This document shows, one piece after another, positions 15,891-63,889 of a stretch of 64,000 nucleotides of DNA; within the stretch, counting starts at the first letter, position 1; the number at the start of each line of letters is the position of its first letter. The notes under the pieces were generated by a model. That model did no database searches, was not told the DNA's origin, and saw only the letters and a program-made list of their open reading frames with translations. This DNA comes from an uncultured Gammaproteobacteria bacterium (lineage in GTDB: Bacteria; Patescibacteriota; Patescibacteriia; Magasanikbacterales; GWA2-37-8). The translations under genes were made by a program, and so were the position numbers. The stretch spans positions 12,830 to 76,829 of the forward strand of contig CAZQUL010000001.1 in assembly GCA_964596525.1 (NCBI GenBank). Reading direction: 5' to 3'.

Positions 15891-16637
15891 CTAAGAACCG
15901 CCACAGGTTTTAGTATTCATGCCGCAGGTATTACCGTTGACGCAATCGCTATTCGTCGTGCATTTGCGACCCGCACCGCAGGGGCTGCAGACCGTTCCAC
16001 CGCAGTCAGTGTCGCTTTCCAGACCATCTTTTACGCCGTTCGTACAGCTTGAACCGCCCGGCATACAAGAACCGTTCTGGCAGTTGTTTGAAACGCAGTC
16101 TTTGTTCTGGGTGCAGACACGGCCGTCTTTGCAGGCATCGCAGGACCCACCGCAATCGGTGTCGGTTTCGGTACCATCGCGGAGCTTATTGTAACAAGAT
16201 TGCGCGAGCTGGGAACGCGGACCGGTCGTGTTAGCGTCGAGGAGTTCTTGGTTAGGGTCAGTGGGCGGGCGTACCTGCAGACGGTTGATGATAAAGGTGG
16301 AAATGCCGTAGGCACTCAATACTACCACCAAACCAATGACGGACGCGCTCAAAATGGATTTGGCTTTTTCGATATATTCTTCGCGACCGTTGGCTGTCAT
16401 CCAACGCACGCCAGCAAAGAGTACGAGTCCAAAAAAGATGATGCTGAGCGAACCGAGAATGATATTGACGACGGCGCCGATGAGCCCGTAAATATCCTGG
16501 TTTTGATTGTAACCGCTTAACCGAGCGGTATCCTTGAGGCCATAACTCTGTGCGGCCACGTCGGTTACGACACCACTTACTATCAAAAGAGCGAGCAGTC
16601 CGCCTATCAAGCTATAACGCACAAAGCGTGTACGCAT
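15891..16637 (-). CDS. VirB2/TrbC-like pilin-family membrane protein with C-terminal Cys-rich tandem repeats
   Basis: Signal peptide MRTRFVRYSLIGG...AAQ and the family motif FAGVRWMTANGREEYIEKAKSILSASVIGLVVVLSAYGI. The C-terminus carries two copies of E[ST]DTDCGG...C...C...C repeats. Confidence 0.65.
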   Translation of the reverse strand: MRTRFVRYSLIGGLLALLIVSGVVTDVAAQSYGLKDTARLSGYNQNQDIYGLIGAVVNIILGSLSIIFFGLVLFAGVRWMTANGREEYIEKAKSILSASVIGLVVVLSAYGISTFIINRLQVRPPTDPNQELLDANTTGPRSQLAQSCYNKLRDGTETDTDCGGSCDACKDGRVCTQNKDCVSNNCQNGSCMPGGSSCTNGVKDGLESDTDCGGTVCSPCGAGRKCTTNSDCVNGNTCGMNTKTCGGS

Positions 16638-31610: not shown

Positions 31611-31675
31611 ATGAGCAGTCTCTTGGGCGAGCACTCTAGACACGACGGTGTCAATTCGTACAAGCAATCCATAAC

Positions 31676-31723: not shown

Positions 31724-31727
31724 ATTA

Positions 31728-31756: not shown

Positions 31757-31803
31757 TTTTTGTCCGCTTTGCGCGGCTTTGACAATCAATGAAAGGAGTC
31801 GTC

Positions 31804-32010: not shown

Positions 32011-32027
32011 CACCCAAGGAGCATGCC

Positions 32028-32603: not shown

Positions 32604-32871
32604 ACGCACCCCGCTTACCCCCGCCCGACGCATATCCGCGCCATCCGATGGGCACACAACAGACCCATCTCCCTTTCTTTCCAAAAAATTGGGAAAAGAG
32701 GGAGGGTCTGTTTTGTTTTTCGCTAAAAAACCACACGAAACTAAACGCGCAGTGATGAGAATTTTCCATATATTTGTCTAAATTTTGATAATCCCATCAT
32801 ATTGTTGACAATATTAAATAAAGGTGATAGGCTGTCCCCGCCTTCCAAACCAACTCGACAAGGACAACGAC

Positions 32872-33276: not shown

Positions 33277-33308
33277 CCAGCAACGCTAGCTAGATTTTCC
33301 CCGACGAC

Positions 33309-33330
33309 AGCCCTGCGGGGCTTTTTTATT
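33309..33330 (+). terminator. terminator after 32872..33276
   Basis: agccc-tgcg-gggct followed by TTTTTTATTTT. Confidence 0.65.
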
Positions 33331-33410
33331 TTATGCGAAAGATGTTTAAGAATTGACAAGAAACCACAGCTTCATTAAGGTTGCAAAGAACCTCCCGCTA
33401 GGAGCCCATC

Positions 33411-33803
33411 ATGAAAGCGTTCTTTGCCGCATCCATACTCAGCACCGTCGCCCTGTGCGCACCCGCTACAGGCCGTGCCGAAAACAACAATCCCGACGCC
33501 TACTGCCAAACAGATCAAGGCCTGCACGAACTGAAAGCGGGCGATCACTGCCCGGGCGTCTATGTCACCAAGCTCGCGCTTAACACCTGGTATGAAAGCG
33601 TGTGCAAGGGCGTGCTCATGGTCGATTTTGTAGGCCGAATCAACATAATTTTCAGCTGCTACTCGTCCCTGGGCCGCATCCAGCGCTCCCATGTCTGCGC
33701 CGAAAATCGACCCGATGTTCATATTTCACACTCGGGCCCGCATAAAGGCGCCGGAACAGGCGGCGGGAGCTCCATCAAAGCGCTGTGCGCGATTCGCAAA
33801 TAA
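33411..33803 (+). CDS. small secreted Cys-rich protein
   Basis: RBS AGGAG. Signal peptide MKAFFAASILSTVALCAPATGRA. Confidence 0.55.
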   Translation: MKAFFAASILSTVALCAPATGRAENNNPDAYCQTDQGLHELKAGDHCPGVYVTKLALNTWYESVCKGVLMVDFVGRINIIFSCYSSLGRIQRSHVCAENRPDVHISHSGPHKGAGTGGGSSIKALCAIRK

Positions 33804-45654: not shown

Positions 45655-46596
45655 TTATGGCTTGCAGGAGTTGGGGATGCCGGGCTCCGGGGTGGTGCAG
45701 GGCACGCTCTCGGTCTCACCGTCCGGACGCTGGTAAGCGCGGCGCAGCTGAGCGCCGGCGGGTGCGCGCACCGAGGTAAGCTCGTCGCCCGAGCGGCCGA
45801 CCAAGTGAATCACGGTATCATTTCCCGTCCGTTGCACGCACTGCCCGTCGGCGCTGCACAGGTCGATGTTCTGGCCATTGGCGTTCAAGACCAACACTCC
45901 TAACGGGAAGTTCGCATTGGCCGCGACGCCGAGCGATCCATACACACCGCCGTTCTGAATGGTGTAGGGCGCCTGGTAAAGGGCGGTTCCCACCATGTCG
46001 CGCGTACTCTTGTTGGGCACGCAGCCGTAGCTTCCGATGGTCTTGTCGCGCTCGAGCCGGTAGCAGGGGCCCGAGGGCAGCTTGTACGGGCAGCCGGGAC
46101 GCTTGGGATCGGGAACGATGCCGGGACCGCTGTTGGGCTCGGTGGGGCATTGATCCGTGGCATTGGACACGCCGTCGCCGTCGGTGTCGTTCGGGTCGTA
46201 TCCCGTGCCGCCGAGTCCGGCGACTACATCGTTGATAGGCTTTGCCACGAACTGCGGCCAGCCGGTCGGACCGCACCATGCCTGATCGACAGCACTCGCC
46301 TCGATGCGGTAAGCCTCAAGACTTCCCTTGCTCTGCTCGGTGACGAGGCAGACGGCTTGCGCTTTGGCATCGCCGTCGGGGCAGCAGGTCGCGGCTTGCG
46401 CACTATACTGATAGACCACATACCCGCCGCCTTGGCCACACATATCGATGGCCTCGTCGAGCTTCTGGCGCAGCGGAGTATCGCTCTGGCAGGTGAGGTC
46501 GGTGCGCGCCGAAAGACCGAGCCCACACCCGGAAAGCACCGTCGAAACAAGGGTGAGGATGAAGGTGGGAGGAATGAGAGAGCGAGAAGTGTGCAT
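45655..46596 (-). CDS. lipoprotein with thrombospondin type-3-like Ca-binding repeat (paralog A of 3)
   Basis: Lipobox LSGC; CCPDGDA motif; DTDGDGVSNATDQCP; RPGCPY; C-terminus ends SCKP. Confidence 0.65.
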   Translation of the reverse strand: MHTSRSLIPPTFILTLVSTVLSGCGLGLSARTDLTCQSDTPLRQKLDEAIDMCGQGGGYVVYQYSAQAATCCPDGDAKAQAVCLVTEQSKGSLEAYRIEASAVDQAWCGPTGWPQFVAKPINDVVAGLGGTGYDPNDTDGDGVSNATDQCPTEPNSGPGIVPDPKRPGCPYKLPSGPCYRLERDKTIGSYGCVPNKSTRDMVGTALYQAPYTIQNGGVYGSLGVAANANFPLGVLVLNANGQNIDLCSADGQCVQRTGNDTVIHLVGRSGDELTSVRAPAGAQLRRAYQRPDGETESVPCTTPEPGIPNSCKP

Positions 46597-46800: not shown

Positions 46801-47742
46801 TTAGGGCTTACAACTGCCGCTCGCGCCGTTGTCCTTGGTGTCACAGGGCAGTTCGTAGATTGCGCGATTCACGAGCGAGTAGTACGTCTTAACGAGCGTG
46901 GCGCTCGCAAGACCTGTGCGTACGGAGGCAATCTCGTGGTTTGGTCCGACCACGAATACGCGGGTACTGCTCGCCCCAACTTGCTTGCACGCACCGGCGG
47001 CCGTGCACAGGTCGAACGAGCCGCTCAGGTTGGGCGTCGCAACACGCACTCCCAAAAGCACGTCGCCGACCAAATCGGTCCACAGACCGTCACTGCTTGA
47101 ACCGAACAGACGGGTCTCACGATCAAAGCTGACCGTCATGGCAAGCGTAGAGCGTTTGGGAATGCACGCGCGCTTTACGACTACGTTATCCCCCTTCACC
47201 TCGCCACACTCCCCGTCCGGAATCGGATAAGGGCAGCCGAAACGCTTAGGATCTGGGTCCGGGTAGGGCTCGGGCTTCTGGTCCGGACAGGCATCATCTG
47301 CATCCGGTACGCTATCGCGGTCACGGTCCGGCTTGACGGTCGGGCCCGTGCCTGTGAGACCAGCCATGACATCGTTGAGCTGGTAACGGCTCTTGGCATC
47401 GCCGGAAGCGAAGCCGCACCAACTGGTCAGCGCCGCTCCTTTGTTGACCCGATACAGCGAATGGATGTCCGTGGAATGGGCTTGCACGCCTTCCAGGCAG
47501 GCGATCTGATCCGGAGCATTACCATCCGGACAGCACGCCGCATAATCCGGAGCCTTCTGCGCCACGTAGCCACCGGTTCTAGCACAGCCTTCGAGCGCCT
47601 GATCGATCTTGATCGAAAAGATTTTGTCAGCTGACGCACCACAGATCAAATCTTCGGGTGGCGGCGAAGCAGTGCCGCAACCGATAGCGGTTGCAAGCAA
47701 AATGCCGAAACCACCACTCCTGTGCCGAAAAAATTCTTTCAT
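46801..47742 (-). CDS. lipoprotein, paralog B of TSP3-repeat family
   Basis: Lipobox AIGC; CCPDGNA; DRDRDSVPDADDACPD; RFGCPY; ends SCKP. Confidence 0.65.
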   Translation of the reverse strand: MKEFFRHRSGGFGILLATAIGCGTASPPPEDLICGASADKIFSIKIDQALEGCARTGGYVAQKAPDYAACCPDGNAPDQIACLEGVQAHSTDIHSLYRVNKGAALTSWCGFASGDAKSRYQLNDVMAGLTGTGPTVKPDRDRDSVPDADDACPDQKPEPYPDPDPKRFGCPYPIPDGECGEVKGDNVVVKRACIPKRSTLAMTVSFDRETRLFGSSSDGLWTDLVGDVLLGVRVATPNLSGSFDLCTAAGACKQVGASSTRVFVVGPNHEIASVRTGLASATLVKTYYSLVNRAIYELPCDTKDNGASGSCKP

Positions 47743-47940: not shown

Positions 47941-48867
47941 CTATGGCATGAGCACACAGGAGCCCGCCTCACCCATGTACTGGGCGGGGCAGGGGTCCGG
48001 GGTGACGATCGCCTTGGCGGCCACGTCCCAGTACGCCGGGCGCACGCTGAACGTGGCATTGCGCGTCCGAACCGTGGTGATGCCGCCCGGCGACACGACG
48101 TAGACCGTCTTGTTCGCCACGGGAACAGGGCGGCAGTTCCCACCCGCATCACAGACATCGACGTTGCCGGAGATCGTCCCCTGGCCGTCGACCGCGATGC
48201 CGACGAGGACCCGCGGACCGTTCGCCTTCACGTAGATGCCGCCACCCGGGGCGAGCGCACGCGAGTTCTGGTCGAAGCTCACAGGCATGGCGAACGTCGA
48301 AGGGCGCGAGACGCAGACCACGTCAGACACGACCGGATCGCTCTCGATCTTGTTGCAGGCTCCTCCGATGGGCTCCGCGTAGGGGCAGCCGGGGCGGGCC
48401 GGATCCTCGTACTGTCCGCGCGCCTCGTTGGGGCACTGGTCGTTCGCATCGGCGATGCCGTCGTTGTCGTTGTCCGGGTCGGGGCAGCCGTCGTCGTCCT
48501 TGAAGCCGTCCTTGTCCTCGGCCTCGTTCGGGCACTGGTCGCCCGTGTCCTGGAAGCCGTCCTTGTCCTTGTCGTTGTCGGGCGTGGCTTCGCAGTTGAT
48601 CGCCGCGAACTGGGACATGTCCTCGCCATCGAGGCAGGCCGCCTGGTCGCCGGTGTTGGGGCAGTACTTCTGCTTGTCGGCGAAGACCTCGGCTCCGCCG
48701 CGGCACAGGCCGTTGCCCTTCTGGGCACACTGATCGCTGCACCACTGCGGCGGGCCCTTGAGCCAGCTGCTAAACACTGAGTCGCAGCCGCTCACGAAGA
48801 ACGCTGCGATGCTCAGACACAGCACGCCAGCCGAGCGATAGACATTCTTGCCAATCTTCTTGCTCAT
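47941..48867 (-). CDS. lipoprotein, paralog C of TSP3-repeat family (three Asp-rich repeats)
   Basis: Start MSKKIG after GGAGGGA; lipobox VSGC. Repeats DKDKDGFQDTGDQCPNEAEDKDGFKDDDGCPDPDNDNDGIADANDQCP; RPGCPY present. Confidence 0.65.
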   Translation of the reverse strand: MSKKIGKNVYRSAGVLCLSIAAFFVSGCDSVFSSWLKGPPQWCSDQCAQKGNGLCRGGAEVFADKQKYCPNTGDQAACLDGEDMSQFAAINCEATPDNDKDKDGFQDTGDQCPNEAEDKDGFKDDDGCPDPDNDNDGIADANDQCPNEARGQYEDPARPGCPYAEPIGGACNKIESDPVVSDVVCVSRPSTFAMPVSFDQNSRALAPGGGIYVKANGPRVLVGIAVDGQGTISGNVDVCDAGGNCRPVPVANKTVYVVSPGGITTVRTRNATFSVRPAYWDVAAKAIVTPDPCPAQYMGEAGSCVLMP

Positions 48868-49139
48868 GACGATTCCCTCCCTATGCACTTCGATTTTCAA
48901 GGCTATCCCAATTTTGGAACCATTCCTCATTGGGACGATATAACGATGATTAGCATACCACAAAATCTGCCTATTGTCAAGACTATTTCGGGAACTATGT
49001 AGAGACGCTTTTTTCATTTAAATAAGCGAAAAAACCTTGTGTGCTTCTATTTGTTTAAGAATTGCCTACGAACTAGAATTAATATGACGGTAAGGAAGTC
49101 TGATGGTTGTGCAATTTTATCTCATATAAGCCAAACTTA

Positions 49140-52704: not shown

Positions 52705-53538
52705 CTAGCGGGCCGCAAGAATAGGCGTAGAAGTAACTCCGGGGGTGACACCGACTACCGTCGGGGTAGCGAGTGGTTTGCGGGGCGTGGCGCCCTTCAC
52801 TTCTACCGTATCACCCACCTGGAGGAATGCATATAACGCTTCTACGTCCTTGTACGCCACGTTTACGCAACCATGACTCATCGGGCGGATGCCGAACTGA
52901 TTATGCCAGTACGCGCCATGGATATAGTAGCTGCGCTTGAATTCCAGATTCCATTTGGTGTTGGGCAAATTGTAGCCTGGGCCGATGTAGTGCACAACCG
53001 GAACTTTGCGTATGACGCTAAAGGTGCCAAGCGGCGTTGGGGTACTGAGCTTGCCGCTTGAAACCGGCATGTCCCCAACAAGGACATTGTTGAGATAGTA
53101 GCTAAGCCGTTGCGTAGTAAGGTCTACAATCACTTTGCGCGGCAGCGCTGTATCGCGCCCTGCTTCCAGGGGATTGCCGCCTTTTTTAACCTCTTCGCCA
53201 TCATTTTTACCGTCTTTATCGGTATCGGCTTTGCCCAGATCGGTACCAAGCTTGAGCTCTAAGGCATCGCTTAAACCGTCTTTATCAGTATCCACCTCGG
53301 AGAGGCGCTTGCCGGCGGCAAGCGGCGAGTAATCGGCAAAAACTTCTTCTGCATCCGAAAAACCGTCGCCGTCGGTATCGGTTTTTTTAGGATCAGTATG
53401 ATACACGGCTACTTCCTCATGGTCGAACAAATTATCACCATCAGCATCAAATGCTGACACCTGCGCCTGAACTGAGGGGGCGCAGAGCAGTGCAGTTGCA
53501 ACCGCACAACCGAGCACAATATTCTTCATCATATGCAT
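52705..53538 (-). CDS. L,D-transpeptidase (YkuD) with N-terminal TSP3/dockerin-like Ca-binding repeats
   Basis: Catalytic HGCVNV; repeats DTDGDGFSDAEE, DTDKDGLSDALE and DTDKDGKNDGEE; signal peptide. Confidence 0.75.
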   Translation of the reverse strand: MHMMKNIVLGCAVATALLCAPSVQAQVSAFDADGDNLFDHEEVAVYHTDPKKTDTDGDGFSDAEEVFADYSPLAAGKRLSEVDTDKDGLSDALELKLGTDLGKADTDKDGKNDGEEVKKGGNPLEAGRDTALPRKVIVDLTTQRLSYYLNNVLVGDMPVSSGKLSTPTPLGTFSVIRKVPVVHYIGPGYNLPNTKWNLEFKRSYYIHGAYWHNQFGIRPMSHGCVNVAYKDVEALYAFLQVGDTVEVKGATPRKPLATPTVVGVTPGVTSTPILAAR

Positions 53539-53591: not shown

Positions 53592-54497
53592 TTAATAGTG
53601 ATTGAAAATACCTTTTCCGTCAAACCGGAAACTACCAGCTTCGTCGGTGCGCCAAACAGGTATTCCGGCACGTTCCAAACGGCGCAGCACTCGGCGTGAG
53701 GGGTGGCCGAACCGATTCTGTTCGCCCGCAGAAATTATGGCTTCGCGTGGCGCAACAGCGGCAATAAAATCTTCGCTGCTTGACGTATCGCTGCCATGGT
53801 GGCCGACCTTAAGGATCGGCGCACTAAGCTTCGGGCAGGAGAACTGTTTGACAGTTGAGGTAACGGACGTTGCAGGATCAGTATTACAGTACGTGGTGAG
53901 CAAAAACTGCTCAAGCGGCGCTTCCGCATCACCCGTAAAGAGCACGAGCGGTTTGCGCTCCGGGTCCACCAAACGAAAGACGATCGATGAGTTATTACTG
54001 TCTGCCGACTCACCGCTAAAACGTGGGTGCGGCGAAAGAATTTCGAACGCATACCCATCTATCTCCCAGACGTCCGGCGCCGTTACTGCGGCAAGCGGGA
54101 TTGCCCGTTCCTCAAAAGAACGCAATAGCTCTTTCCAAGCCGCATCATCCTTATCGTGACCATTGATGATGACGGCATGTACGGCGTAGCGCTCGACGAT
54201 TCCTTGGCACCCGGCATAGTGGTCGCTATCGGGATGTGTGATAACCAAAAAATCGATAGAACGGTCGTACCAGGGCAAAAGGCGCCCCACCTCGGCAAGC
54301 ACACGGCGGTCAGGGCCGCAATCGATGAGGATACGTTTACCGGAAGGAAGCGTTATAAAAGTTGCATCGCCTTGCCCTACATCAAGAAAATCGACGTAAA
54401 AACCTTGTTTTGAATGGGCGATGAACGCACCGATACTCAGGATAGTCATGACAACCACAGCGACGATAACGCACTGGCGAAAAAACGACACACGCAC
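53592..54497 (-). CDS. ComEC C-terminal-type metallo-beta-lactamase domain protein (stand-alone, TM-anchored)
   Basis: VGQGDATFITLPSGKRILIDCGPD and HPDSDHY, as in the ComEC/Rec2 MBL domain. Confidence 0.7.
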   Translation of the reverse strand: MRVSFFRQCVIVAVVVMTILSIGAFIAHSKQGFYVDFLDVGQGDATFITLPSGKRILIDCGPDRRVLAEVGRLLPWYDRSIDFLVITHPDSDHYAGCQGIVERYAVHAVIINGHDKDDAAWKELLRSFEERAIPLAAVTAPDVWEIDGYAFEILSPHPRFSGESADSNNSSIVFRLVDPERKPLVLFTGDAEAPLEQFLLTTYCNTDPATSVTSTVKQFSCPKLSAPILKVGHHGSDTSSSEDFIAAVAPREAIISAGEQNRFGHPSRRVLRRLERAGIPVWRTDEAGSFRFDGKGIFNHY

Positions 54498-55114
54498 TAT
54501 TTATTAATCTGTGCCGCGAAAAGTTCGGCGATCCACTGTCCGTTTTCGGTGATGCGCTCGCGACGCAAGATGGTAAAAAGGCTTTCTTCGAGCGCTTCAG
54601 CCACTGCTTCGGGACGGTGATAGTACGACTCGATCTTAACAATTCCTTGGGCTGTCTTGATTTCTGGCGGATCTTTCTGGTTGATAGCTGAAACGATAAA
54701 ACGGCCGTTAGGCACAAGTACGCGCCGCACTTCATCAAAGAAGTAATCGAGCCGTTTGAGGTGCACGATAAGGAAAAGCGCGGTCACCACATCGAATGAA
54801 GCATCGGGAAAGGGTATGTTTTCGGCTTCTCCCACGACAGTTGTAAGCCGCGCACTCCGCCCTTGTGCCACTTTGAGCATGGCCGGCGAATGATCAAGCA
54901 CAACTACTTCTCGGGCAGTAGCCGCAAACTTAACCGCTGTGCGGCCGGTACCACCACCCACATCAAGCAAACGCTGACCCGAAATGTCGCCGGTAAGCGC
55001 CCCAAGCATGCCCTGCTCAAAAGAATCCAGATACGCCTCATAGCGCCGGTACAGGGGCGCCACCGCTTCGTATCCAGCCTGTGAGGGCAGAAATTGTATT
55101 CGTTTTGAGGACAT
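54497..55114 (-). CDS. class I SAM-dependent methyltransferase
   Basis: LLDVGGGTGRTAVKFA motif I. The stop/start overlaps the downstream gene. Confidence 0.8.
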   Translation of the reverse strand: MSSKRIQFLPSQAGYEAVAPLYRRYEAYLDSFEQGMLGALTGDISGQRLLDVGGGTGRTAVKFAATAREVVVLDHSPAMLKVAQGRSARLTTVVGEAENIPFPDASFDVVTALFLIVHLKRLDYFFDEVRRVLVPNGRFIVSAINQKDPPEIKTAQGIVKIESYYHRPEAVAEALEESLFTILRRERITENGQWIAELFAAQINK

Positions 55115-55131: not shown

Positions 55132-56676
55132 TTATCGCACAGTTCGCTTATGCATGTCAATCCTTAAACGTGTATAACCAATACCGAAGATAAGCGCAGC
55201 ATACGCGGCAAACATGCCGAAGCGGCCCATCGCTACCGACACCACAGCAAACGGCACACGAGCCAACAAGCGCAGAAGATAAAAAATGATCCGCACTAAA
55301 CCGCCGGCTACAACACCCACTACGCTTCCCAACCCCTCATGCACCAAACCAACAAGAGTGGCAATAAAAGCAAAGAACATGATGAACGACGTGAGGGGCA
55401 CAACCAAGGTATTAGCTACAAGAGCAACAAGCGACACGCGGCCGAAATAGTACATAATGAACGGCAAGGTGCTGATGGTTGCAGATAACGTGGTAAGGCC
55501 AGCCTCGGCAAGAGCCGCCACAACACCCGTGAACCTCTTCCTCGGCACCCACCGCTCGAGGAGCGGCTGCACATACAGCAAACCGAGCGTTGCCGCCACT
55601 GAGAGATGAAAACCGATATCAAAAAGCAAGCTATACGGACTGAAGGTGATAAGAACGGCCACGGCATACATTATAAGGAGAGCTGGATTAAGCCGTCGGC
55701 TCATCTGGCGCGCCATAAGGGTGATAACCACCATGATACCAGCCCGCACCACCGAAGCCGAGGCACCGGCGAAAAGGACAAACACAATAATCGCCGCCAC
55801 GGTGATAAACCAGGTTTTACGCTCCGAAAGACCGCCCCATATAAACGCCTGCGCCACCGCGACAATGATAATGTTGAGATTCGCACCCGAAACTGCGATG
55901 AGGTGCGTTACCCCGGTTGCTGCAAATAAATCTGTTAAAGCCGGTGGCAAACCGGATCGGCTGCCATAGAGAATGCCCGCGATAAAACTCGACTCCGGTT
56001 CTTTCCATACTGCATCGATAGCGCGAGCCACCCGGGAACGCACTGCAAAAAGTATACGCCAAAACACCGACGACTCTCCTTTCCCCACAACTCCAATAGC
56101 TGAAGCCGTGCATTCGCCTACAAAACCGTTGATCCAGGCGTAGCGATCATACCGGAAAGCTTCATCGACAGCTGCCTCGGGGATACGCGGCGTACACGCA
56201 AACCGCACCAGGTCTCCGTAACGAGGCCCACTCTCACGCGGCGCACGAACGCGCAGCGCGACGGATTGTAGTTTTTCGGGACGTTCTATTTGCACGAGGT
56301 AGTACGTTCGGTCTAACCGGCGATCTGGATCATGCACGACCACCCCTTCAATATTAATCCGTTTACCTACCGCGGACGCGATACGTTCTACCGCCACAGC
56401 CGGCGTCGCGGTTTCTACGCGCCAGATGGCAAGAGTAGCTGCCAAACCAGCGGCTATCAACAAACGCAACTGCGGCCTACTCCACCACAAGCTTACCGCA
56501 CATAACAACCCGATCACCGCAAAAGGTATCAAAAAACTTATCGCGGCAACCACAGTTGGCGCTACGGTGCTCCACCCGATCGCAACGATATAGGTAACAA
56601 AAAAGACAACAACCACACCGTGCGCGCTATACCAGGGAAACCGCCGCCATCGCGAGAAGATATTCATATGAGACAA
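55132..56676 (-). CDS. comEC: ComEC/Rec2 N-terminal part (DUF4131 plus competence membrane domain), lacking the MBL domain
   Basis: THLIAVSGANLNII (compare HLLAISGLH), ASVVRAGIMV and FHLSVAATLGL competence-domain motifs; many TM helices. Confidence 0.75.
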   Translation of the reverse strand: MSHMNIFSRWRRFPWYSAHGVVVVFFVTYIVAIGWSTVAPTVVAAISFLIPFAVIGLLCAVSLWWSRPQLRLLIAAGLAATLAIWRVETATPAVAVERIASAVGKRINIEGVVVHDPDRRLDRTYYLVQIERPEKLQSVALRVRAPRESGPRYGDLVRFACTPRIPEAAVDEAFRYDRYAWINGFVGECTASAIGVVGKGESSVFWRILFAVRSRVARAIDAVWKEPESSFIAGILYGSRSGLPPALTDLFAATGVTHLIAVSGANLNIIIVAVAQAFIWGGLSERKTWFITVAAIIVFVLFAGASASVVRAGIMVVITLMARQMSRRLNPALLIMYAVAVLITFSPYSLLFDIGFHLSVAATLGLLYVQPLLERWVPRKRFTGVVAALAEAGLTTLSATISTLPFIMYYFGRVSLVALVANTLVVPLTSFIMFFAFIATLVGLVHEGLGSVVGVVAGGLVRIIFYLLRLLARVPFAVVSVAMGRFGMFAAYAALIFGIGYTRLRIDMHKRTVR

Positions 56677-56721
56677 AACACTCTGGGGTATCCCAGAGTG
56701 TTGTACGTAATGAGTGTATCT

Positions 56722-57168
56722 TTACAAAAAGAGGGCTACGAAACTGTTCGTCGGCCGACCAATGGCGATATTGATCGCCATGCTGGTCAACGAATACGAG
56801 GAGAGAATAATGACGAGACCAATCGTAGCGTTGCGGATGGTATGTTTGGCTTTATCGATCTGTTCGTCGTTGCCACCGGCCGTGAGCCAGAGATAACCGG
56901 CGTACAACATGTAGCAAAAGACGATAATAGCCAAGAGCCGCAGAATGGAGCGCACCAAAAGCATGATGGTTACCCGTGGATCCACCGGATCACCAAAACC
57001 AGCACCGCGTTTGCCGCCAGCAGCAGCAAGCTGCGCGCCAATGTCTTCACCTACGCCGGTATCTTGCGCTTGTACAGGCAGAGCCGGAAGAGCGATTGGA
57101 AGCGCAACCAAAACTGCCATACCAAGGAAGGCGAGGGTGCGTTGAACGCGGCGAGCAAACGTAGCCAT
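56722..57168 (-). CDS. VirB2/TrbC-like pilin-family protein (array member 1)
   Basis: Signal peptide, then YAGYLWLTAGGNDEQIDKAKHTIRNATIGLVIILSSYSL. Confidence 0.65.
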   Translation of the reverse strand: MATFARRVQRTLAFLGMAVLVALPIALPALPVQAQDTGVGEDIGAQLAAAGGKRGAGFGDPVDPRVTIMLLVRSILRLLAIIVFCYMLYAGYLWLTAGGNDEQIDKAKHTIRNATIGLVIILSSYSLTSMAINIAIGRPTNSFVALFL

Positions 57169-57199
57169 ACAAAATGAAGAAAGGTAAAAGAAACGAGAT

Positions 57200-57685
57200 C
57201 TAGAAAACGTAATTCCACCAGTTATCTTTGAAGGATTTGCCAAAACTAGTCCAAAAACCGCCTGTACCGTAGCCCGGGCCAACGGAACCACTTGAGGGCG
57301 CACCCGACGTAAGCGCAACGACACCTACCAAGAAGGCCGACAAACCATAGGCCGCCATTACCACGACAAGACCCATAGTAGAGGTCTTAATGATATCTTT
57401 TGCCTTATCGACCTGACCTTCATCACCCTGCGCCGTGAGCCACAAGAAACCGGCGTATACGAGCAGGATGAAAAAAATAGTACCGATAAGCGACATGGCG
57501 ATGCGGATGATGCGGCCGATGGTTTCGGACAAGGTCGTATCCGTCACTTGTTTAACATCGTAACCGCTTTTTCCAGCCACTTCTTCGGTTAAACTCATAA
57601 TGTCCGGCTGAGCCAGAGAAACGACCGGCAAAGCGAAGGCGGTCGTAGCTACAACACCGAGAATAAGGCGCGATACTTTTGTCAT
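57200..57685 (-). CDS. VirB2/TrbC-like pilin-family protein (2)
   Basis: YAGFLWLTAQGDEGQVDKAKDIIKTSTMGLVVVMAAYGLS. Confidence 0.7.
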   Translation of the reverse strand: MTKVSRLILGVVATTAFALPVVSLAQPDIMSLTEEVAGKSGYDVKQVTDTTLSETIGRIIRIAMSLIGTIFFILLVYAGFLWLTAQGDEGQVDKAKDIIKTSTMGLVVVMAAYGLSAFLVGVVALTSGAPSSGSVGPGYGTGGFWTSFGKSFKDNWWNYVF

Positions 57686-57693
57686 ACCAGAAA

Positions 57694-58104
57694 TTATTTA
57701 GCGGCCGTTGAAGAGGCCGGAGCAGCCGCTCGGGTCAAGCGATTGCCGACGAAGTAGGTTACCGAGTAGGCCGACAGTGTAATGATAAGACCCATGACGC
57801 ATGCCTTTATGATTGACTGCGCTTTTTCGATTTTTCCTTCATCGCCCTGAGCTGTCATCCAGAGAATGCCGGCGTAAATGGTGAGCAGGAAGAAGATGGT
57901 ACCGGTAATCGCCAGCACACCGCGCACCACGGTACCTATCGTACCGGTCAAATCACGGCTCAAGCCCGTACCGCTTTTATCACCCACAGCTTTATCGAGA
58001 TTACTCATTGCCTTGTCGAGCTGGGCGTGGGTAAAAGAAACCGGAGCTAAAGCCATAATACCGGCTACGAGCGAAACAGTGAGAAACGAGAAGAAACGGC
58101 GCAT
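57694..58104 (-). CDS. VirB2/TrbC-like pilin-family protein (3)
   Basis: YAGILWMTAQGDEGKIEKAQSIIKACVMGLIITLSAYSV. Confidence 0.7.
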   Translation of the reverse strand: MRRFFSFLTVSLVAGIMALAPVSFTHAQLDKAMSNLDKAVGDKSGTGLSRDLTGTIGTVVRGVLAITGTIFFLLTIYAGILWMTAQGDEGKIEKAQSIIKACVMGLIITLSAYSVTYFVGNRLTRAAAPASSTAAK

Positions 58105-58158
58105 AAAAAGTTATATAATTAACACTAATGAAGAGGAGTAAAAGCAGGCTAAGAGATA

Positions 58159-58713
58159 TTAATTTCCCACATCAACGCAACGAGCATTGTCAGTTCCTTC
58201 GTTTATCCACGCACATATCGAAGCATTCGCATTGGTGTTTTCGGCAAGACAGGAATCACGCGTAACGTTGATGACACACGAGACATTATTTCCAGCCGCA
58301 CTTGAGGCAGCAGCGTTACGGGATAACTGATCGAAGACGAACTGAGTAATAGCGTACGCAGCCAAAACGATCACCAAACCGATAACCGAAGCTTCCATGA
58401 TACTTTTCGCTTTGCTGATACTGTCTTCGCTGCCGCGAGCCGTCATCCAGAGAATGCCGGCGTAAAAGATGAGTCCAAAGAAAACGATACCCAAAAAGCC
58501 CAACACCGCACCAACCAACGTACCGACCAGCTCGGGAACGGTGCCTGCGCCGGCTATTTTAGAAGGTAAAAGATTCGCGTTGCCGCGATTAACTTCTTGG
58601 ACCGTAAGAGACAGGCCGTAATCTTTTTTCTGTTGCGCATGAGCGCCAGAAAACGGCAGGACAAGTGAGGCAAGCCCTACCACAAGGCTGCCGATGACAA
58701 GCATTTTTTTCAT
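58159..58713 (-). CDS. VirB2/TrbC-like pilin-family protein (4) with Cys-containing C-terminal tail
   Basis: YAGILWMTARGSEDSISKAKSIMEASVIGLVIVLAAYAI. Start placed at the MKKML ATG; the track uses an upstream TTG. Confidence 0.7.
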   Translation of the reverse strand: MKKMLVIGSLVVGLASLVLPFSGAHAQQKKDYGLSLTVQEVNRGNANLLPSKIAGAGTVPELVGTLVGAVLGFLGIVFFGLIFYAGILWMTARGSEDSISKAKSIMEASVIGLVIVLAAYAITQFVFDQLSRNAAASSAAGNNVSCVINVTRDSCLAENTNANASICAWINEGTDNARCVDVGN

Positions 58714-58847
58714 ACCGTACAAGGTCCTAAATGAAGAAGGTAATGCCCCGAAAAGTTGGGTCTTTGCGAAGCACTCTCTTCTTCAAACCCCTCAGTCCGA
58801 GGGAGTGGCGGCCGCACACCCCCTCGAACATAAGAGAGATTCTCGTT

Positions 58848-59264
58848 TTAGAGTCCTGAGCCCGTAGTACCGGTACCTGTCGTTGCCGCTACGAGCTGGT
58901 TGATGATGAAGCTGGTAAGGGCGTAAGCCATGAGGATGATAGCCAAACCGATAGCCGATCCGGTGATCCAAGCTTTAGCCTGAGCAGTCTGGTCTTCGTT
59001 GCCTCCGGCGGTCATCCAAAGGAAACCGGCGTAGAGCATGATAACTACCATGACGGTAGCGATAAGACCAAGAAGGGCTTTGATAATGTTGGAAACCACG
59101 ATGCGGAAATCACGGTCCGGGAGCCCCGTAGCCTTGATCTGCGAGACACCGAAGGTGTCAGCAGTTACCGATTGAGCGGAAGCCGTCGAGACAAACGTCC
59201 CAGCGGAAGCTACGAGCGTCAAACCCATTACGAAAGCGGTCATGAGTTTTTTGGTTGTGGACAT
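58848..59264 (-). CDS. VirB2/TrbC-like pilin-family protein (5)
   Basis: YAGFLWMTAGGNEDQTAQAKAWITGSAIGLAIILMAYAL. Confidence 0.7.
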   Translation of the reverse strand: MSTTKKLMTAFVMGLTLVASAGTFVSTASAQSVTADTFGVSQIKATGLPDRDFRIVVSNIIKALLGLIATVMVVIMLYAGFLWMTAGGNEDQTAQAKAWITGSAIGLAIILMAYALTSFIINQLVAATTGTGTTGSGL

Positions 59265-59441
59265 ACTGTCACCTCCCTTCGTGATAAAGCTAGGTATGGC
59301 ATGCCGTCATCCGACACACCGCTGACACAATCTTTTGAGCTTGTGCCAATGGTGTTTCTGATGATCTAAACGGCCTATGCTAGCATGATTTAGTAATTTT
59401 GTCAAGTATCCTGAGAAGCGTCCTCATTGTAGCATGTTTTT

Positions 59442-59882
59442 TTACTTCGCGCCAGTCAGATAATCCAGATAGGTGCCAAGCAGGATGTAGCTCGCTAAAA
59501 TAACGAGCACGCCAATGACGGCCCACATCATGGTCTTGCTCCCCTGCGCAATCTGGTCGCTATTTCCAGCTGCAGTAAGCCACATGAAACCGCCCCATAC
59601 CACCATCATGAGCGTTAAGGAACCCATGATAAGAAGCACGAACTGAATAAAACCACCGACTTGGGCAAAGATGTTAGTGCCGCGCGACTGGAGCGGATTG
59701 GGAATTGTGGTGCATGTGCCAACACCATCAGGGCACGGTGCGCTATTGGTGGCGTTGAAACCAGGCGTATTGGCATTCGGAAGCGACGTGGTCTGTGCCA
59801 GAACGGCGGAGCCGGATAATGCACCAACAAAAACGAGCGCGGTAATGAAGAGGCGGGGTGCGCGATGCACAAAAGATAGCAT
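59442..59882 (-). CDS. VirB2/TrbC-like pilin-family protein (6)
   Basis: WGGFMWLTAAGNSDQIAQGSKTMMWAVIGVLVILASY. Start placed at the internal Met MLSFVHR to avoid overlap. Confidence 0.65.
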   Translation of the reverse strand: MLSFVHRAPRLFITALVFVGALSGSAVLAQTTSLPNANTPGFNATNSAPCPDGVGTCTTIPNPLQSRGTNIFAQVGGFIQFVLLIMGSLTLMMVVWGGFMWLTAAGNSDQIAQGSKTMMWAVIGVLVILASYILLGTYLDYLTGAK

Positions 59883-59892
59883 AAAGTAAGAA

Positions 59893-60855
59893 TTATCCAA
59901 CGGTATCAAAGATGAACTTAACGATAAGCGAACTGCCAAGCATAGCCACTACGCCAAGCGTTGTCCATACGATGATCGTTTTCGCTTTATCGATGCGATC
60001 GCCATTGCCTGCAGCTGTCATCCACAAGATACCGGCCCAGACATAGAGCGCAAGAGCAAAAGAACCGATGAAGGCCAAAAAGACATTGATGATCTGAGCA
60101 ATAACTTCGGTGATCGTGCGGAATTTGGTTTGATTAAGTACGCTTGCTTCTTGCGTTAAGTTGATATTCCCCTGCAAAGCATCTTGCTGGGTTTGATCTT
60201 CGGCGTCGCGGAGATTCTCTTCTTGGTTGACACGCGCTTGGAAGGCCTGGCACCCAGCACCGCGGGCGATAACGTCTTTATATTTGGGATATGTCGTGCC
60301 AGTGAACGGACGGTAATCTTGGCCAAAAGAAGCGCAGGAAGGCGTAAATTTAAGGGCATCGCCCTCTTGATCATAGTCGACAGCTCTGCTGCAATCTGAT
60401 AAACGCCCACCTTGATTTCGGCAGCAGCAGAACGGGTCGAGATAGTTGCATTTTTTGGCAAAATCTTCTCCATCTCGGCTGCCACCATACCACTGCACCT
60501 CACCTACTTTTATGTCGCAACCATTTTCATTAGACGAATAGAGGAGTGGATATCGATTATACGGTTTGTCATCGACGGACTTACGCAAAACTTCAAAGAG
60601 AGGCAGGTCGTCAAAAGTATTAAAACTCATCCATTTATAACTTCGTTTGGCACCACCATCAATTTTAAAGTCAATTTCACAATAGCATGCACCGACGCAG
60701 GTTGACGGATCCCGACATTCATCGTCGTATACCTCTCTAACTCCTGACAGGTCATTAACGATGTAGGCAGCCTGAATAGATTGTGGTTTGAAAAAACCGC
60801 CGATCAAGAAAAATAGGCCCACGATGACAATCAACCTGACAAGACGTTGTACCAT
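59893..60855 (-). CDS. VirB2/TrbC-like pilin-family protein (7) with large Cys-rich N-terminal ectodomain
   Basis: WAGILWMTAAGNGDRIDKAKTIIVWTTLGVVAMLGSS at the C-terminus; 20+ Cys in the N-terminal domain. Confidence 0.65.
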   Translation of the reverse strand: MVQRLVRLIVIVGLFFLIGGFFKPQSIQAAYIVNDLSGVREVYDDECRDPSTCVGACYCEIDFKIDGGAKRSYKWMSFNTFDDLPLFEVLRKSVDDKPYNRYPLLYSSNENGCDIKVGEVQWYGGSRDGEDFAKKCNYLDPFCCCRNQGGRLSDCSRAVDYDQEGDALKFTPSCASFGQDYRPFTGTTYPKYKDVIARGAGCQAFQARVNQEENLRDAEDQTQQDALQGNINLTQEASVLNQTKFRTITEVIAQIINVFLAFIGSFALALYVWAGILWMTAAGNGDRIDKAKTIIVWTTLGVVAMLGSSLIVKFIFDTVG

Positions 60856-60859
60856 ATAA

Positions 60860-61582
60860 TTATTGCAAACGGAATTGTTGGCTGAGACCCAGAGCATCGG
60901 CCAAGATGGTAATGAGAAGATACGCACCGAAGACAACCGCGAGACCGATGACCGCGGCCACCATGGTATTCTTACCCGATTCGATCATGTCAGAACTGCC
61001 GCGCGAAAGAATGAACTTGAAGCCGCCGATGAGGAAAGCGACAAGGGCGATGCCACCGACAAGGCCGAGCAGCAAATTGGCCAGATCGATAGCCAGTTTG
61101 ATGAAAATACGCACGTCTTTGCACTCGCCACGGACCGTGCTTTCGAATACGCAGGCAGGCATGATGCGCTGCAAAATACCGGTTTGACCATTACTTTGCG
61201 CTTCAACGTTCGTCTGGTTTTTCTTGCTCACGAGGAGCCGGGCAGCATCTTGCAAGGTGGCGGTTTTAAAGTTACGGACTTTTACCGAACACGCTTCAGC
61301 GTTAGGCTGAAATTCACAGGTGGTGTATTTGCTGTTAATAGCCGGATTGCCCGGAGCACACGAAGTGGCATCGGCTTCAAAACATTCCGCGTCAAAACGA
61401 TTGGCATCATCGAATATGCTCACGTCGGTTTCTTGGACTACAGCATCTTCGGGAAACTTAAAGACATAGCAATAACAGGAACCGGCTGCCTGCGCGCCCT
61501 GAGCATTCCCTAACAGCCCTGCCAACAAGGCGAAGGCAAGAAGAGAACTAGAAACTAAACGGCGAAGAAGAAACATAGGCAT
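60860..61582 (-). CDS. divergent pilin-family-like protein (8) with Cys-rich N-terminal domain
   Basis: Same architecture: signal peptide, then C-terminal double TM GGIALVAFLIGGFKFILSRGSSDMIESGKNTMVAAVIGLAVVFGAY. The loop motif is degenerate. Confidence 0.5.
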   Translation of the reverse strand: MPMFLLRRLVSSSLLAFALLAGLLGNAQGAQAAGSCYCYVFKFPEDAVVQETDVSIFDDANRFDAECFEADATSCAPGNPAINSKYTTCEFQPNAEACSVKVRNFKTATLQDAARLLVSKKNQTNVEAQSNGQTGILQRIMPACVFESTVRGECKDVRIFIKLAIDLANLLLGLVGGIALVAFLIGGFKFILSRGSSDMIESGKNTMVAAVIGLAVVFGAYLLITILADALGLSQQFRLQ

Positions 61583-62988
61583 TAGAAGGTCTGATCAATT
61601 TTGGCGGCGGCACGATTGAGGATGGCCTGATACCAACGGCCCGGTTCTTGGCCTTCGGGAAGCGGTACCTGCCATTCGTTGATCATGTCGGAAAGGGCTT
61701 TGACGGCAGCTTCATAATTGGTTCCTTTGTACCAGTTGCGGGCAACGAGGATATGGGTGACGAACGGGAAAAGATTGGGGTTCTCGAGCTGGGTGCCGAC
61801 ATAGGTGCGCAGCGCGGTGGGGCGCTCGGTTTTGTCGAGGTATTCTTTGGTGGCCGGTGAATGGGCAATGTAGTCGATAAACGCCCAGGCTGCTTCTTGG
61901 TCCGGAGATTTTTTGGTAACGGTCTGGACCCAGTAATTAGCTACGTTGCGGGCCCGATCCGGGTCGATCTGGAAGAGCGGAATGATACCAAAATTGAGCT
62001 GCGGGGCGCGCGCCTTAATGACTGGCAAGTGATAATTATATCCAAAGAAGAACGCCAAGGAACCGTTAGTGAACGCATCGAGGGCGCTCGGCAAACTGGA
62101 GGACCAGCTGTAGGTTTCGGCAGCCGGATTGGCAAAGTCGGCGTAAAAGTTGAGGATATTGTACGCTGGCGGTTGCTCTTCGTAGGCCAGCGTGCGTGGC
62201 GGCAGCTGGAACGTAGGGCGGCCGGCTTTGTCGACAAAACTAAGACGGTTTTGCTCAAAAAGAGTGAACAGAATATCGTCAGCACCCGGAATATTGTTGC
62301 CGGTGCCGAGCGCTACGCCGGACTGGAGGATTTTGCCGTCCTTATCGATTTTGCTGATTTTTTGCACGGCGGCTTGCAGTTCGGACCAGGTTTTGGGCAC
62401 TTCGGGAATACCGGCGCGATCGAGGATGTCGCGATTATAATAGACCGCAAGAGAATCGAGCGATAAGGGCAAACCGTAAATCTGATTATCAAAAACTACG
62501 TCTTCGGCGACAGCCGGAACATATTCATTAACGAGCTGTGGAACCGTGAGCAAGCGGCGTGCGCCGGGAACAACCGTAGATTTGCTATCAAAAGAGCTGC
62601 CAGAACTGATGACGCGGTTATCCGGAACTTCGAGCGGCATGGTGGCCAGCTTGGAGCGCATGAGCGGAAGGGAGCGGTTGCGCAGAGAAACGATATCTGG
62701 ACCGCGGTCTTCGGCCAATTCTTCGATAAGGCGCTGGTAGAGCTCTTCGGGGCGGAGCTGGCGGATAGTAATGGAGATGTGGGGGCGCTCAGCCTGGAAC
62801 GCAGCTGCGAGTGCTTTGAGCTGATCCACATCGTCATAGACCGTCCAGTATTCGAGCTGTGCTGGTTTGACCGCTGCCGCCTGCTCGGCCTGTTGCGTGG
62901 ATTTGCAGCCCAAACCAGTGAAGGCGAGGATGCCTATGAGAAGGATGGCAAGGAGAGAATTTTTCTTAACGCTTTGATGCCTTAGCAT
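61582..62988 (-). CDS. ABC transporter substrate-binding lipoprotein, family 1 (sugar type)
   Basis: Lipobox LGC; overall SBP_bac_1-like architecture. Confidence 0.7.
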   Translation of the reverse strand: MLRHQSVKKNSLLAILLIGILAFTGLGCKSTQQAEQAAAVKPAQLEYWTVYDDVDQLKALAAAFQAERPHISITIRQLRPEELYQRLIEELAEDRGPDIVSLRNRSLPLMRSKLATMPLEVPDNRVISSGSSFDSKSTVVPGARRLLTVPQLVNEYVPAVAEDVVFDNQIYGLPLSLDSLAVYYNRDILDRAGIPEVPKTWSELQAAVQKISKIDKDGKILQSGVALGTGNNIPGADDILFTLFEQNRLSFVDKAGRPTFQLPPRTLAYEEQPPAYNILNFYADFANPAAETYSWSSSLPSALDAFTNGSLAFFFGYNYHLPVIKARAPQLNFGIIPLFQIDPDRARNVANYWVQTVTKKSPDQEAAWAFIDYIAHSPATKEYLDKTERPTALRTYVGTQLENPNLFPFVTHILVARNWYKGTNYEAAVKALSDMINEWQVPLPEGQEPGRWYQAILNRAAAKIDQTF

Positions 62989-63022: not shown

Positions 63023-63889
63023 TTATATCACACTCTTTAGGAACTTCCTAAAATCGGGAGCTAGCTTTTTGTCACGGAGGGCAAAATCGACGTTGGCTTT
63101 GAGGTAGCCGAGCTTGGAACCAGTGTCGTAATGGATTCCTTCTACCTTGCACGCATATACCGCGCGCTGCTTGATAATCTTGGCAATCGCATCGGGGAGC
63201 CAGATTTCGCGGTCTTTGCCGGGTTTGGTTTTTTCAAGTGCAGGGAAAATATCGGGCGTAAGGATGTAGCCACCGAGGCACGCGAGGCGCGAGGCGGTTT
63301 TTTCGGGACCGGGTTTTTCAATGAGACTCGAAACTTGCGCGATTTTGGAGGTAACAGGCTCGGCTTCGATAATACCGTATTTCTTGGTTCCTTCATCATC
63401 AACATTAAAGGCGGTTAAAACCGGATTTTGATACCGCTCATACACTTCGATGAGCTGTGCCAAATGGGGTTTTTTGGGCGAATAGAAAAACTCATCGCCC
63501 CAGACGACGGCAAAGGGTTCGTCGCCGACGAGGTTCTTGGCGCAGAGAACGGGCGTACCGTTACCATACGGACCTTTCTGGCGGATAAAGACGAAATTCG
63601 CCAGATCGGTGATGCGCTCAATCTCTTCGGCCTGCTCGTATTTGCCCTGTTTTTTGAGCCAGTTAACGAGTTCGGAATTGGGGCTAAAATGGTCTTCGAT
63701 GGCGCGTTTGTTGGCGCCGGTGACGAGAATGATGTCTTTGATACCGGATTTAACGGCGTCTTCTACCACGTACTGAATAGTCGGTTTATCGACGATGGGC
63801 AGCATTTCTTTGGGCTGGGCTTTGGTGGCCGGAAGAAAACGCGTGCCGAGGCCGGCGACCGGAATGATGAGTTTGCGGACGGAAGACAT
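63023..63889 (-). CDS. galU: UTP-glucose-1-phosphate uridylyltransferase
   Basis: LIIPVAGLGTRFLPATKAQPKEMLPIVDKPTIQYVVEDAVKSGI. Start at the internal Met MSSVRKL. Confidence 0.85.
   Translation of the reverse strand: MSSVRKLIIPVAGLGTRFLPATKAQPKEMLPIVDKPTIQYVVEDAVKSGIKDIILVTGANKRAIEDHFSPNSELVNWLKKQGKYEQAEEIERITDLANFVFIRQKGPYGNGTPVLCAKNLVGDEPFAVVWGDEFFYSPKKPHLAQLIEVYERYQNPVLTAFNVDDEGTKKYGIIEAEPVTSKIAQVSSLIEKPGPEKTASRLACLGGYILTPDIFPALEKTKPGKDREIWLPDAIAKIIKQRAVYACKVEGIHYDTGSKLGYLKANVDFALRDKKLAPDFRKFLKSVI

Follow-up and report, generated by a model that had tools for sequence, protein, structure and literature searches.

Why should a run of eight small pilin-like genes lie directly upstream of comEC, and what could so many related subunits be doing in one cell? 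The question is raised by a stretch of 64,000 nucleotides (the 64-kb window in what follows; contig CAZQUL010000001.1 of assembly GCA_964596525.1), in which a preliminary description saw a tandem array of pilins resembling VirB2/TrbC of type IV secretion systems (T4SSs), and proposed for it a variable surface repertoire serving host attachment or the uptake of DNA. Our analysis leads to a different answer. The array is a VirB2-like T4SS_pilin family set of the Magasanikbacteria, whose paralog classes recur in a fixed sequence across the whole order, whose ninth member seems to have been displaced in this genome, and whose neighborhood with comEC looks like a recent accident. We consider it probable that its products are Sec-exported hairpins that co-assemble into a mixed surface structure driven by a T4SS.

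All eight genes described at 56722-61582 on the minus strand are present, and so is the further copy at 15891-16637, on the same strand. In the direction of transcription we call them m8 (60860..61582, 240 amino acids, aa), m7 (59893..60855, 320 aa), m6 (59442..59882, 146 aa), m5 (58848..59264, 138 aa), m4 (58159..58713, 184 aa), m3 (57694..58104, 136 aa), m2 (57200..57685, 161 aa) and m1, the last of the tandem run (56722..57168, 148 aa from the ATG at 57168); the distant copy is m9 (15891..16637, 248 aa). The eight tandem products have the same lengths in a gene call made independently on a Logan contig of 10.4 kb, which holds the same DNA as the array region. The overlaps previously noted for m8/m7, m7/m6 and m2/m1 stem from the choice of the longest open reading frame (ORF). 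When the window was searched in all six frames with a profile of the nine C-terminal domains, exactly nine copies were recovered (E 1e-26 to 1e-34), the next match lying at E = 0.14.

The family of these proteins is clear. PF18895 (T4SS_pilin) is the top match for all nine, and eight of them reach its gathering score of 26.6 bits (m1 30.0, m2 38.0, m3 31.3, m4 29.6, m5 33.0, m6 27.3, m8 31.5, m9 35.2). Only m7, with 18.3 bits, falls below it, despite matching the profile of the array's own C-terminal domains at E 1e-30. The prepilin N_methyl motif (PF07963, G/FTLIE), on the other hand, matched none of the nine, with E-values up to 1 considered, in agreement with the initial view that these are T4SS pilins of the VirB2-like family and not of the PilA type. 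Membership of PF18895 is thus established at the level of sequence profiles, and homology to the solved VirB2 pilins is a family-level assignment, which searches by fold and against PDB sequences did not strengthen. The nine also match NF045849, a "pilin-like conjugal transfer protein" of Mycoplasma integrative and conjugative elements (ICEs), at 15.2-27.8 bits, below the cut-off of 40, and by this measure appear related to that family without belonging to it. The family at large is vast, with 77,644 representatives at 50% identity (E <= 1e-3). The loop between the two C-terminal helices agrees with the consensus that had been proposed (YAGxLWMTAxGxEDxIxKAKxII..VIGLV..L.AY), but to call it near-invariant was an overstatement: three glycines only are strictly invariant in the alignment of the nine proteins, and m6 and m8 deviate from the consensus. 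Local alignments of the paralogs give low identities, 25-57%. Searched against PDB sequences, the profile of the nine domains brought up nothing but repeat-protein and CorA matches, which we judged spurious.

Topology is equally consistent across the set. Every member has one N-terminal and two C-terminal hydrophobic segments (Kyte-Doolittle windows), and the AlphaFold2 model of m3, built on an alignment of the nine paralogs, is a helical hairpin (H47-84/H89-127; predicted local distance difference test, pLDDT, of 81-88 in the core), so that the claimed signal peptide followed by two C-terminal transmembrane (TM) helices is borne out. The cysteine-rich regions are also where they had been placed. 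Counted in the translations, there are 12 Cys in the N-terminal outer domain of m7 and eight in that of m8, to which we add two in the N-terminal outer part of m6; four lie in the C-terminal tail of m4, and 16 in that of m9, which consists of two repeats that share 56% identity across 41 aa (E 3e-13). We computed this distribution on 678 related pilins. The share of cysteine is 4.0% in the N-terminal outer part and 7.3% in the C-terminal tail, with an even number in 164/188 and 206/208 of the proteins that have any, against 0.10% in the TM-loop-TM core, where the number is even in 2/50. Since cysteines occur at both termini and mostly in even counts, disulfide-bonded modules outside the cytoplasm are to be expected at both ends, and the pattern fits the hairpin of T4SS pilins with both N- and C-terminus out.

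The outer domain of m7 is kept in 18 full-length homologues, in which 11-12 Cys are fixed, some of them in an FCCC motif, and its AlphaFold2 model is beta-rich (pLDDT 85-94), with no match among solved folds in the PDB and no Pfam family; scanned alone, the Cys-rich modules of m7, m8 and m9 gave no Pfam or NCBIfam match. At the N-terminus, the predicted signal-peptidase cut leaves a Gln after a small-x-small site in 7/9 pilins, which can be likened to the Gln that begins the mature VirB2 of Agrobacterium tumefaciens. In relatives the small-x-small|Q motif occurs in 295/713 proteins versus 171 after shuffling, a modest enrichment that we do not use as support.

To whom does this set belong, and how old is it? 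GTDB species genomes were scanned for YAG[IF]LW[ML]TA, a motif taken from a four-sequence alignment (the nine-sequence alignment held no sufficiently conserved block), and 597 loci were confirmed. All counts of related array loci given here refer to the best 80 of these 597, with flanks fetched up to 10 kb on each side. Almost all 80 lie in metagenome-assembled genomes (MAGs) of Candidatus Magasanikbacteria (Magasanikiibacteriota), in keeping with the genome of the candidate phyla radiation (Patescibacteria) that had been supposed. The host is a Magasanikbacteria-type patescibacterium of class ABY1, where this group has been placed (PMC12102498). Many GTDB representative MAGs that carry the locus (L004, L006, L008, L010 and many more) are titled "uncultured Gammaproteobacteria bacterium", titles that are evidently wrong.

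Once each related pilin is assigned to the window member that it matches best, the order m8-m7-m6-m5-m4-m3-m2-m1-m9 recurs in most related loci. Perfect collinearity with the window is found in 41 of the 65 arrays having at least eight pilins, and 98 gene pairs out of 2798 are out of order. Reciprocal-best orthologues exist in 45-74 loci per paralog class (m8 in 61, m6 in 62, m4 in 66, m3 in 74, m2 in 71 and m1 in 57). Extra copies are mainly local duplications of the m5, m4 and m3 classes, most often of m5, and the window's array has no recent duplicates.

These data bear directly on the idea of a variable repertoire, in which interchangeable surface subunits would broaden or switch the range of host strains or help to escape recognition, as has been suggested of VirB2 paralogs in Bartonella and Anaplasma. 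Such a role has also been put forward for the VirB2 arrays of Patescibacteria (PMC12102498). The highly divergent outer parts on a conserved hairpin core speak for it, as do the low identity between paralogs, the sporadic duplications just mentioned, and domain lengths that vary between genomes. Yet a changing repertoire would not be expected to keep each class in its position, with its identity, across 45-74 genomes, nor to be devoid of recent duplicates in the window. The spacing of the genes also points to co-expression of the members. The stop of the upstream solute-binding protein (SBP) gene and the start of m8 overlap as TAATG (a distance of -1 nt), and m8 to m7, m7 to m6, m3 to m2 and m2 to m1 are 4, 10, 8 and 31 nt apart, with m4 to m3 at 54 nt and wider gaps from m6 to m5 (177 nt) and from m5 to m4 (134 nt). 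Relatives keep the same tight runs, [SBP-m8-m7-m6] and [m4-m3-m2-m1], with longer gaps before m5 and m4. Besides, family members with many pilin domains fused in frame, to which we return below, force co-expression. The pilin set appears in consequence to be old and fixed and not fast-changing; the repertoire reading fits this locus poorly, and we hold it to be unlikely.

The m5 gene stands out in this arrangement. It is the sole window paralog with a strong Shine-Dalgarno sequence, GGGAGGTG, and in relatives a Shine-Dalgarno-like motif precedes 22% of the m5 class versus 0-4% of the other classes, which makes it the candidate for a major subunit. The gap between m6 and m5 contains a promoter-like TTGACA-17-TAGCAT with an upstream TG (59377..59405 (-), 10/12 matches), which is only a hint, the region-wide total of such sites not being above chance. 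A search with Rfam found no structured RNA in the intergenic gaps of the array, and only four tRNAs in the window as a whole.

The pilins are part of a larger conserved locus. In related genomes it runs galU - SBP_bac_1 - 8-11 pilins - glycosyltransferase (on the opposite strand), and then tRNA-His and tRNA-Arg - one more pilin - rpsO - NYN - pnp. The window begins this series as expected, with a galU-like gene for UTP-glucose-1-phosphate uridylyltransferase (63023..63889 (-), PF00483; 323.3 bits against TIGR01099 GalU, just under the cut-off of 326.8) and an orphan SBP_bac_1 gene (61582..62988 (-), PF01547 and PF13416), whose product is a probable lipoprotein with weak MalE/GanS-type matches; the TAATG overlap indicates that it is translationally coupled to m8. 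Both had been correctly named in the preliminary description, together with the comEC genes and the methyltransferase on the other side of the array. Among relatives, galU is upstream of the array in 56 loci and the SBP gene directly upstream in about 60, while in seven an m7-like pilin is inserted between galU and SBP.

The second half of the locus explains the ninth member. In relatives, the m9 orthologue is found just after the array and before rpsO-NYN-pnp, whose homologues directly follow this terminal pilin in 47-50 loci. The window keeps the same tail around m9, with rpsO at 15379-15744 (-), the NYN-domain gene at 14771-15364 (-) and pnp at 12344-14638 (-) on one side, and on the other tRNA-Arg (16748-16820 (+)) and tRNA-His (17668-17741 (+)). 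This tRNA pair, on the strand opposite to the pilins, lies between array and terminal pilin in most of the related loci that extend this far (about 60 loci), and marks in the window both the old junction between array and m9 and the edge of a break in synteny. A GT2 glycosyltransferase gene at 20927-21847 (-) has its homologue between the array and the tRNA pair in 15 relatives; others have a glycosyltransferase resembling diglucosyl-diacylglycerol synthase in this position (e.g. L036 11231-12301 (-)). Because the whole tail has been retained, we take m9 for the terminal member of the ancestral locus, apparently displaced: about 35-39 kb of housekeeping genes, among them those for leucyl-tRNA synthetase (LeuRS), RNase J, RNase Y and IF2 and the comEC block, now lie between the array and its old tail.

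Two further features of these neighborhoods deserve mention. UDP-glucose is made by GalU and used by diglucosyl-diacylglycerol synthase, which the glycosyltransferase of many relatives resembles, and genes of glycolipid synthesis thus bracket the pilin array in many relatives; solved T4SS pili contain stoichiometric lipid. Also, directly upstream of galU many relatives have genes for two PilA-type (N_methyl) pilin-like proteins of ~600 aa (with a CarboxypepD_reg domain) and ~207 aa (L036 403-4292; clusters of 30 and 38 loci), and for a conserved unknown protein of ~474 aa. In these relatives, genes of type IV pilus-like proteins thus adjoin those of T4SS-type pilins; the window ends earlier, and the Logan contig differs there.

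What, then, of comEC? As had been reported, the gene is split. Its N-part (55132..56667 (-)), a neighbor of the array that lies outside the conserved locus, encodes the DUF4131 and Competence domains and covers positions 79-371 of TIGR00361 (ComEC/Rec2); a class I S-adenosylmethionine-dependent methyltransferase gene follows (54497..55114 (-)), and then a separate gene for the C-terminal metallo-beta-lactamase (MBL) part (53592..54497 (-), PF00753), which covers positions 420-663 with 150.9 bits. The OB/DUF4131, Competence channel and MBL nuclease domains are hence all present, over two genes. None of the 120 closest homologues of the N-part has an MBL domain, all having DUF4131 and Competence only, and a separate MBL gene comes after comEC-N in every context examined (L082-L085), twice with the methyltransferase between and a YkuD gene behind, as in the window (L082, L083). 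Judged from these comparisons, the split is real and the norm for the lineage.

The association of this gene with the pilins is another matter. A filament working with ComEC, as a ComB-like conduit that passes DNA or nucleotides to the adjacent channel, is suggested by the adjacency itself, array and comEC-N being on the same strand in this genome, and it has a precedent in the ComB system of Helicobacter pylori (cited in PMC11665869); moreover, virB4 loci of class ABY1 often contain comF, recG and radA (PMC12102498). Synteny largely refutes it. A phmmer search with the window protein found no ComEC in the fetched flanks (up to 10 kb each side) of any of the 80 related arrays, and a profile of the 120 lineage homologues, run against the same flanks, matched the window's own contig and nothing else. 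Conversely, the ComEC loci of four relatives have no pilins upstream, their place being taken by a LeuRS, deacetylase or ABC-F gene (the orders are comEC-N - methyltransferase - MBL - YkuD ... NusA, and LeuRS - (deacetylase) - comEC-N - MBL). In the closest relative, L002, the ancestral glycosyltransferase gene comes right after the m1 orthologue. Since the relatives lack ComEC at the array and L002 retains the glycosyltransferase, the adjacency of m1 and comEC seems to be an accident of this one genome, produced by a recent rearrangement; the junction itself is backed by the Logan contig as a second assembly besides the window.

Nor are the two probably even one transcription unit. Between the stop of m1 and the start of comEC-N lies a terminator-like hairpin, ACACUCUGGG-AUAC-CCCAGAGUGU then UUUUGUCU (56671..56703 (-)), with a perfect stem of 10-11 bp and a folding energy (dG) of -20.6 kcal/mol (z -5.16; 0/200 shuffles as stable), and L002 has a comparable hairpin behind its m1 orthologue. 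A generic terminator scan had missed the hairpin at 56671-56703, apparently because an extra A-U stem pair shortens the U-tract. The hairpin and the UUUUGUCU weaken the claim of one apparent operon from galU to the MBL gene. Finally, in Southlakia epibionticum, a cultured Saccharibacterium, comEC is dispensable and the pilins are essential (PMC12857230). Given the hairpin and the 80 relatives without ComEC beside the array, the link to DNA uptake is unsupported, as is the notion that an array next to DNA-uptake machinery is a hallmark of these bacteria, and we regard a ComEC conduit as very improbable.

If not ComEC, which machinery would these pilins serve? VirB2-like arrays are already known in Patescibacteria, and the present one is one more case. 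In 383 assemblies of Patescibacteria, Quinonero-Coronel et al. 2025 counted 441 VirB2 arrays, which comprise 2-11 genes each (mean identity 25%), and they found a pilin gene near virB4 in 1135/1948 assemblies (PMC12102498). They define an array as at least two genes with PF04956 or PF18895 (independent E-value < 0.001, model coverage > 50%) that are adjacent or have one non-pilin gene between them; here 7/8 tandem genes pass the E cut, and m7 (E 0.0025) would be the single interruption that this definition permits. In S. epibionticum, an essential series of pilin genes is part of the T4SS cluster (Wang et al. 2023, PMC10633639), and a possible pilus in a monoderm bacterium has been discussed on this basis (2025 review, PMC12857230). 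VirB4 is recorded as "Yes" for the Magasanikbacteria genomes GW2011_GWA2_37_8 (the genome of locus L026) and GWC2_37_14. The position of the Saccharibacteria arrays within the T4SS cluster and these VirB4 records lead us to infer that the Magasanikbacteria pilins depend on a T4SS as well.

Alternatively, these proteins may form no pilus at all, but an oligomeric membrane scaffold for envelope or transport functions that needs no T4SS and acts with the SBP and the UDP-glucose/glycolipid genes. The array is indeed away from recognizable T4SS genes, here and in the 80 relatives, and the link galU - SBP - array - glycosyltransferase is conserved; the SBP gene is coupled to m8, with no ABC permease genes seen nearby; poly-domain fusions reach 17 units, and the fold matches to pilins are not significant. 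The homologous arrays within the T4SS cluster of Saccharibacteria and the frequent proximity of pilin genes to virB4 argue the other way, and so do the fit to the Pfam T4SS pilin model and the weak matches to TrbC and to the Mycoplasma ICE pilin-like proteins. On balance, a scaffold of this kind seems to us rather improbable, if somewhat less so than the ComEC conduit.

Evidence on how the pilins may act together also comes from other lineages, in which such domains are fused into single polypeptides. All 150 of the best-scoring among the 77,644 family representatives have 2-17 tandem pilin domains in one polypeptide (including P0147, P0148 and P0158). P0147, present in two independent assemblies (L086 9925-12387, L087 230-2692), has 820 aa with one signal peptide and eight hairpin domains; it is followed by another two pilin genes, of which one has a PKD domain, and then by a gene for a PKD-repeat protein. 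The order of domains in the fused poly-pilins is unlike the gene order of the window, and the fusions would hence be independent expansions. In-frame fusion forces co-expression in equal amounts, which suggests that the fused domains sit side by side in one assembly.

It is this observation, together with the recurrence of the same nine classes in the same order across the order, that leads us to propose co-assembly. According to the reading that we favor, each pilin would be exported via Sec and probably cut by signal peptidase I, and the mature protein would be a helical hairpin in the membrane, with both ends outside the cell and the short acidic/basic loop (G-x-E-D...K-A-K) facing the cytoplasm. 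The outer ends would carry disulfide-bonded modules of varying size. The nine paralogs would then combine in a single mixed structure on the cell surface, a short pilus or stalk, in which the small, well-translated m5 class may be the bulk subunit, and the decorated m7, m8, m4 and m9 contact or tip modules, possibly meeting the surface of a host cell. A monoderm-type T4SS (with VirB4, VirB6 and further components), encoded at another place in the genome, would drive assembly, and the sugar-type solute-binding lipoprotein, whose gene would be co-transcribed, would act as a conserved partner.

Several points weigh against this reading. The TrbC/VirB2 model PF04956 (gathering score 27.9 bits) was not reached, its sole match among the nine being m8 with 15.9 bits (E 0.015). 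No Foldseek match of the m3 model in the PDB reached E <= 0.001: the first-ranking PDB entry was 8dfu, the conjugation pilus of Aeropyrum pernix (E 0.74, template modeling score 0.59), and 8exh, the T-pilus of A. tumefaciens, came 18th (E 3.9). The profile of the nine domains likewise retrieved no solved pilin among PDB sequences. Neither VirB4 nor VirB6 nor any other T4SS component was recognized in the window, where about a dozen ORFs are without family match, and the flanks of the 80 related arrays yielded no VirB4-like ORF in a check that consisted in clustering ORFs of at least 400 aa and scanning 17 outliers for Walker A, without family models. No filament has been seen in this lineage; co-assembly draws its whole case from the conserved gene order and the fusions, and long poly-domain fusions are hard to square with a classical helical pilus. 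Also, the lengths of outer domains and tails differ between orthologues, which suggests some diversification. The window ORFs without Pfam match (130-474 aa, including 19516-20940 (-), 2368-3588 (-), 26243-27229 (+), 46801-47742 (-) and 30490-33803) are typical of Patescibacteria, and a very divergent T4SS component may be among them.

A more daring version of the preferred reading would have the galU-SBP-nine-pilin locus encode a surface organelle of fixed proportions, in which each paralog class has its own structural position, with m5 as the bulk, m7, m8, m4 and m9 as distal or contact modules, and the SBP as obligatory partner. We offer this tentatively, as the less likely outcome. If true, it would mean a many-subunit pilus of T4SS type in a monoderm, encoded apart from its secretion ATPase, whereas the T4SS pili whose structures have been solved so far consist essentially of a single pilin. 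Few envelope features specific to Patescibacteria have been shown to be essential in a cultured species, and T4SS-type pilin arrays are one of them. That the array of a whole order is a fixed paralog set, linked to an SBP and UDP-glucose/glycolipid genes but not to ComEC, leaves fewer hypotheses that merit a test: co-assembly is now likelier than the switching of variants, and contact with sugars of the host surface likelier than DNA uptake. The case also serves as a caution that function is not readable from the gene neighborhood of a single genome.

Compared with the arrays described before in Patescibacteria (PMC12102498, PMC10633639), the present one is alike in its family, tandem arrangement, size within 2-11 genes, low paralog identity, and monoderm, ultrasmall host. 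It differs in lying outside a T4SS cluster, within a galU-SBP-array-glycosyltransferase-tRNA-pilin-rpsO locus. The earlier survey stressed Microgenomatia and Saccharimonadia, and mentions neither the link to an SBP nor a conserved paralog order (PMC12102498). What we add are modest new points: an order-wide conserved locus with a fixed paralog order, its link to SBP and galU/glycosyltransferase genes, the apparently displaced ninth member, and the widespread poly-pilin fusions. With the VirB2/TrbC/TraA pilins of Gram-negative bacteria (PF04956; T-pilus 8EXH) the window proteins share a signal peptide, a helical hairpin with both ends outside, and small size; unlike them, they score below PF04956 and lack a significant match of fold or sequence, have no adjacent VirB3-B11 genes, number nine paralogs instead of one, and bear in several members large disulfide-rich modules. 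The VirB2 paralogs of the Bartonella Trw system and of Anaplasma phagocytophilum are also tandem, divergent T4SS pilins thought to vary the surface, but they are recent amplifications inside T4SS operons of intracellular animal pathogens, whereas the window set appears old and positionally conserved across an order.

The Mycoplasma ICE proteins Mbov_0395/MMCAP2_0565 (NF045849) offer a further comparison: the nine pilins span nearly the whole of this 80-position model (E 1e-6 to 1e-2), and both groups are from wall-less or monoderm bacteria with FATA-type T4SSs. However, the scores are only 15-28 bits, under the cut-off, and the Mycoplasma genes are single-copy and belong to mobile elements. 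The FATA-type T4SSs of Mollicutes are usually said to lack pilins; the sub-threshold similarity to NF045849 raises the prospect that VirB2-like hairpin proteins may exist there too.

Outside the pilin locus, the window holds two observations of independent interest. Its LeuRS (27285-30347 (-), 1020 aa) contains a NUDIX hydrolase domain (residues 418-542) as an insertion that directly follows the editing domain; the same insertion is found in L084 (999 aa), and the LeuRS of L085 (817 aa) is without it. Thrombospondin type 3 (calcium-binding) repeats occur in several secreted-looking proteins, encoded at 52705-53538 (-), 7034-9238 (+), 45655-46596 (-) and 47941-49017 (-), which include a 734-aa Beta_propel protein and a YkuD L,D-transpeptidase, whose gene comes after the comEC MBL gene in relatives too.

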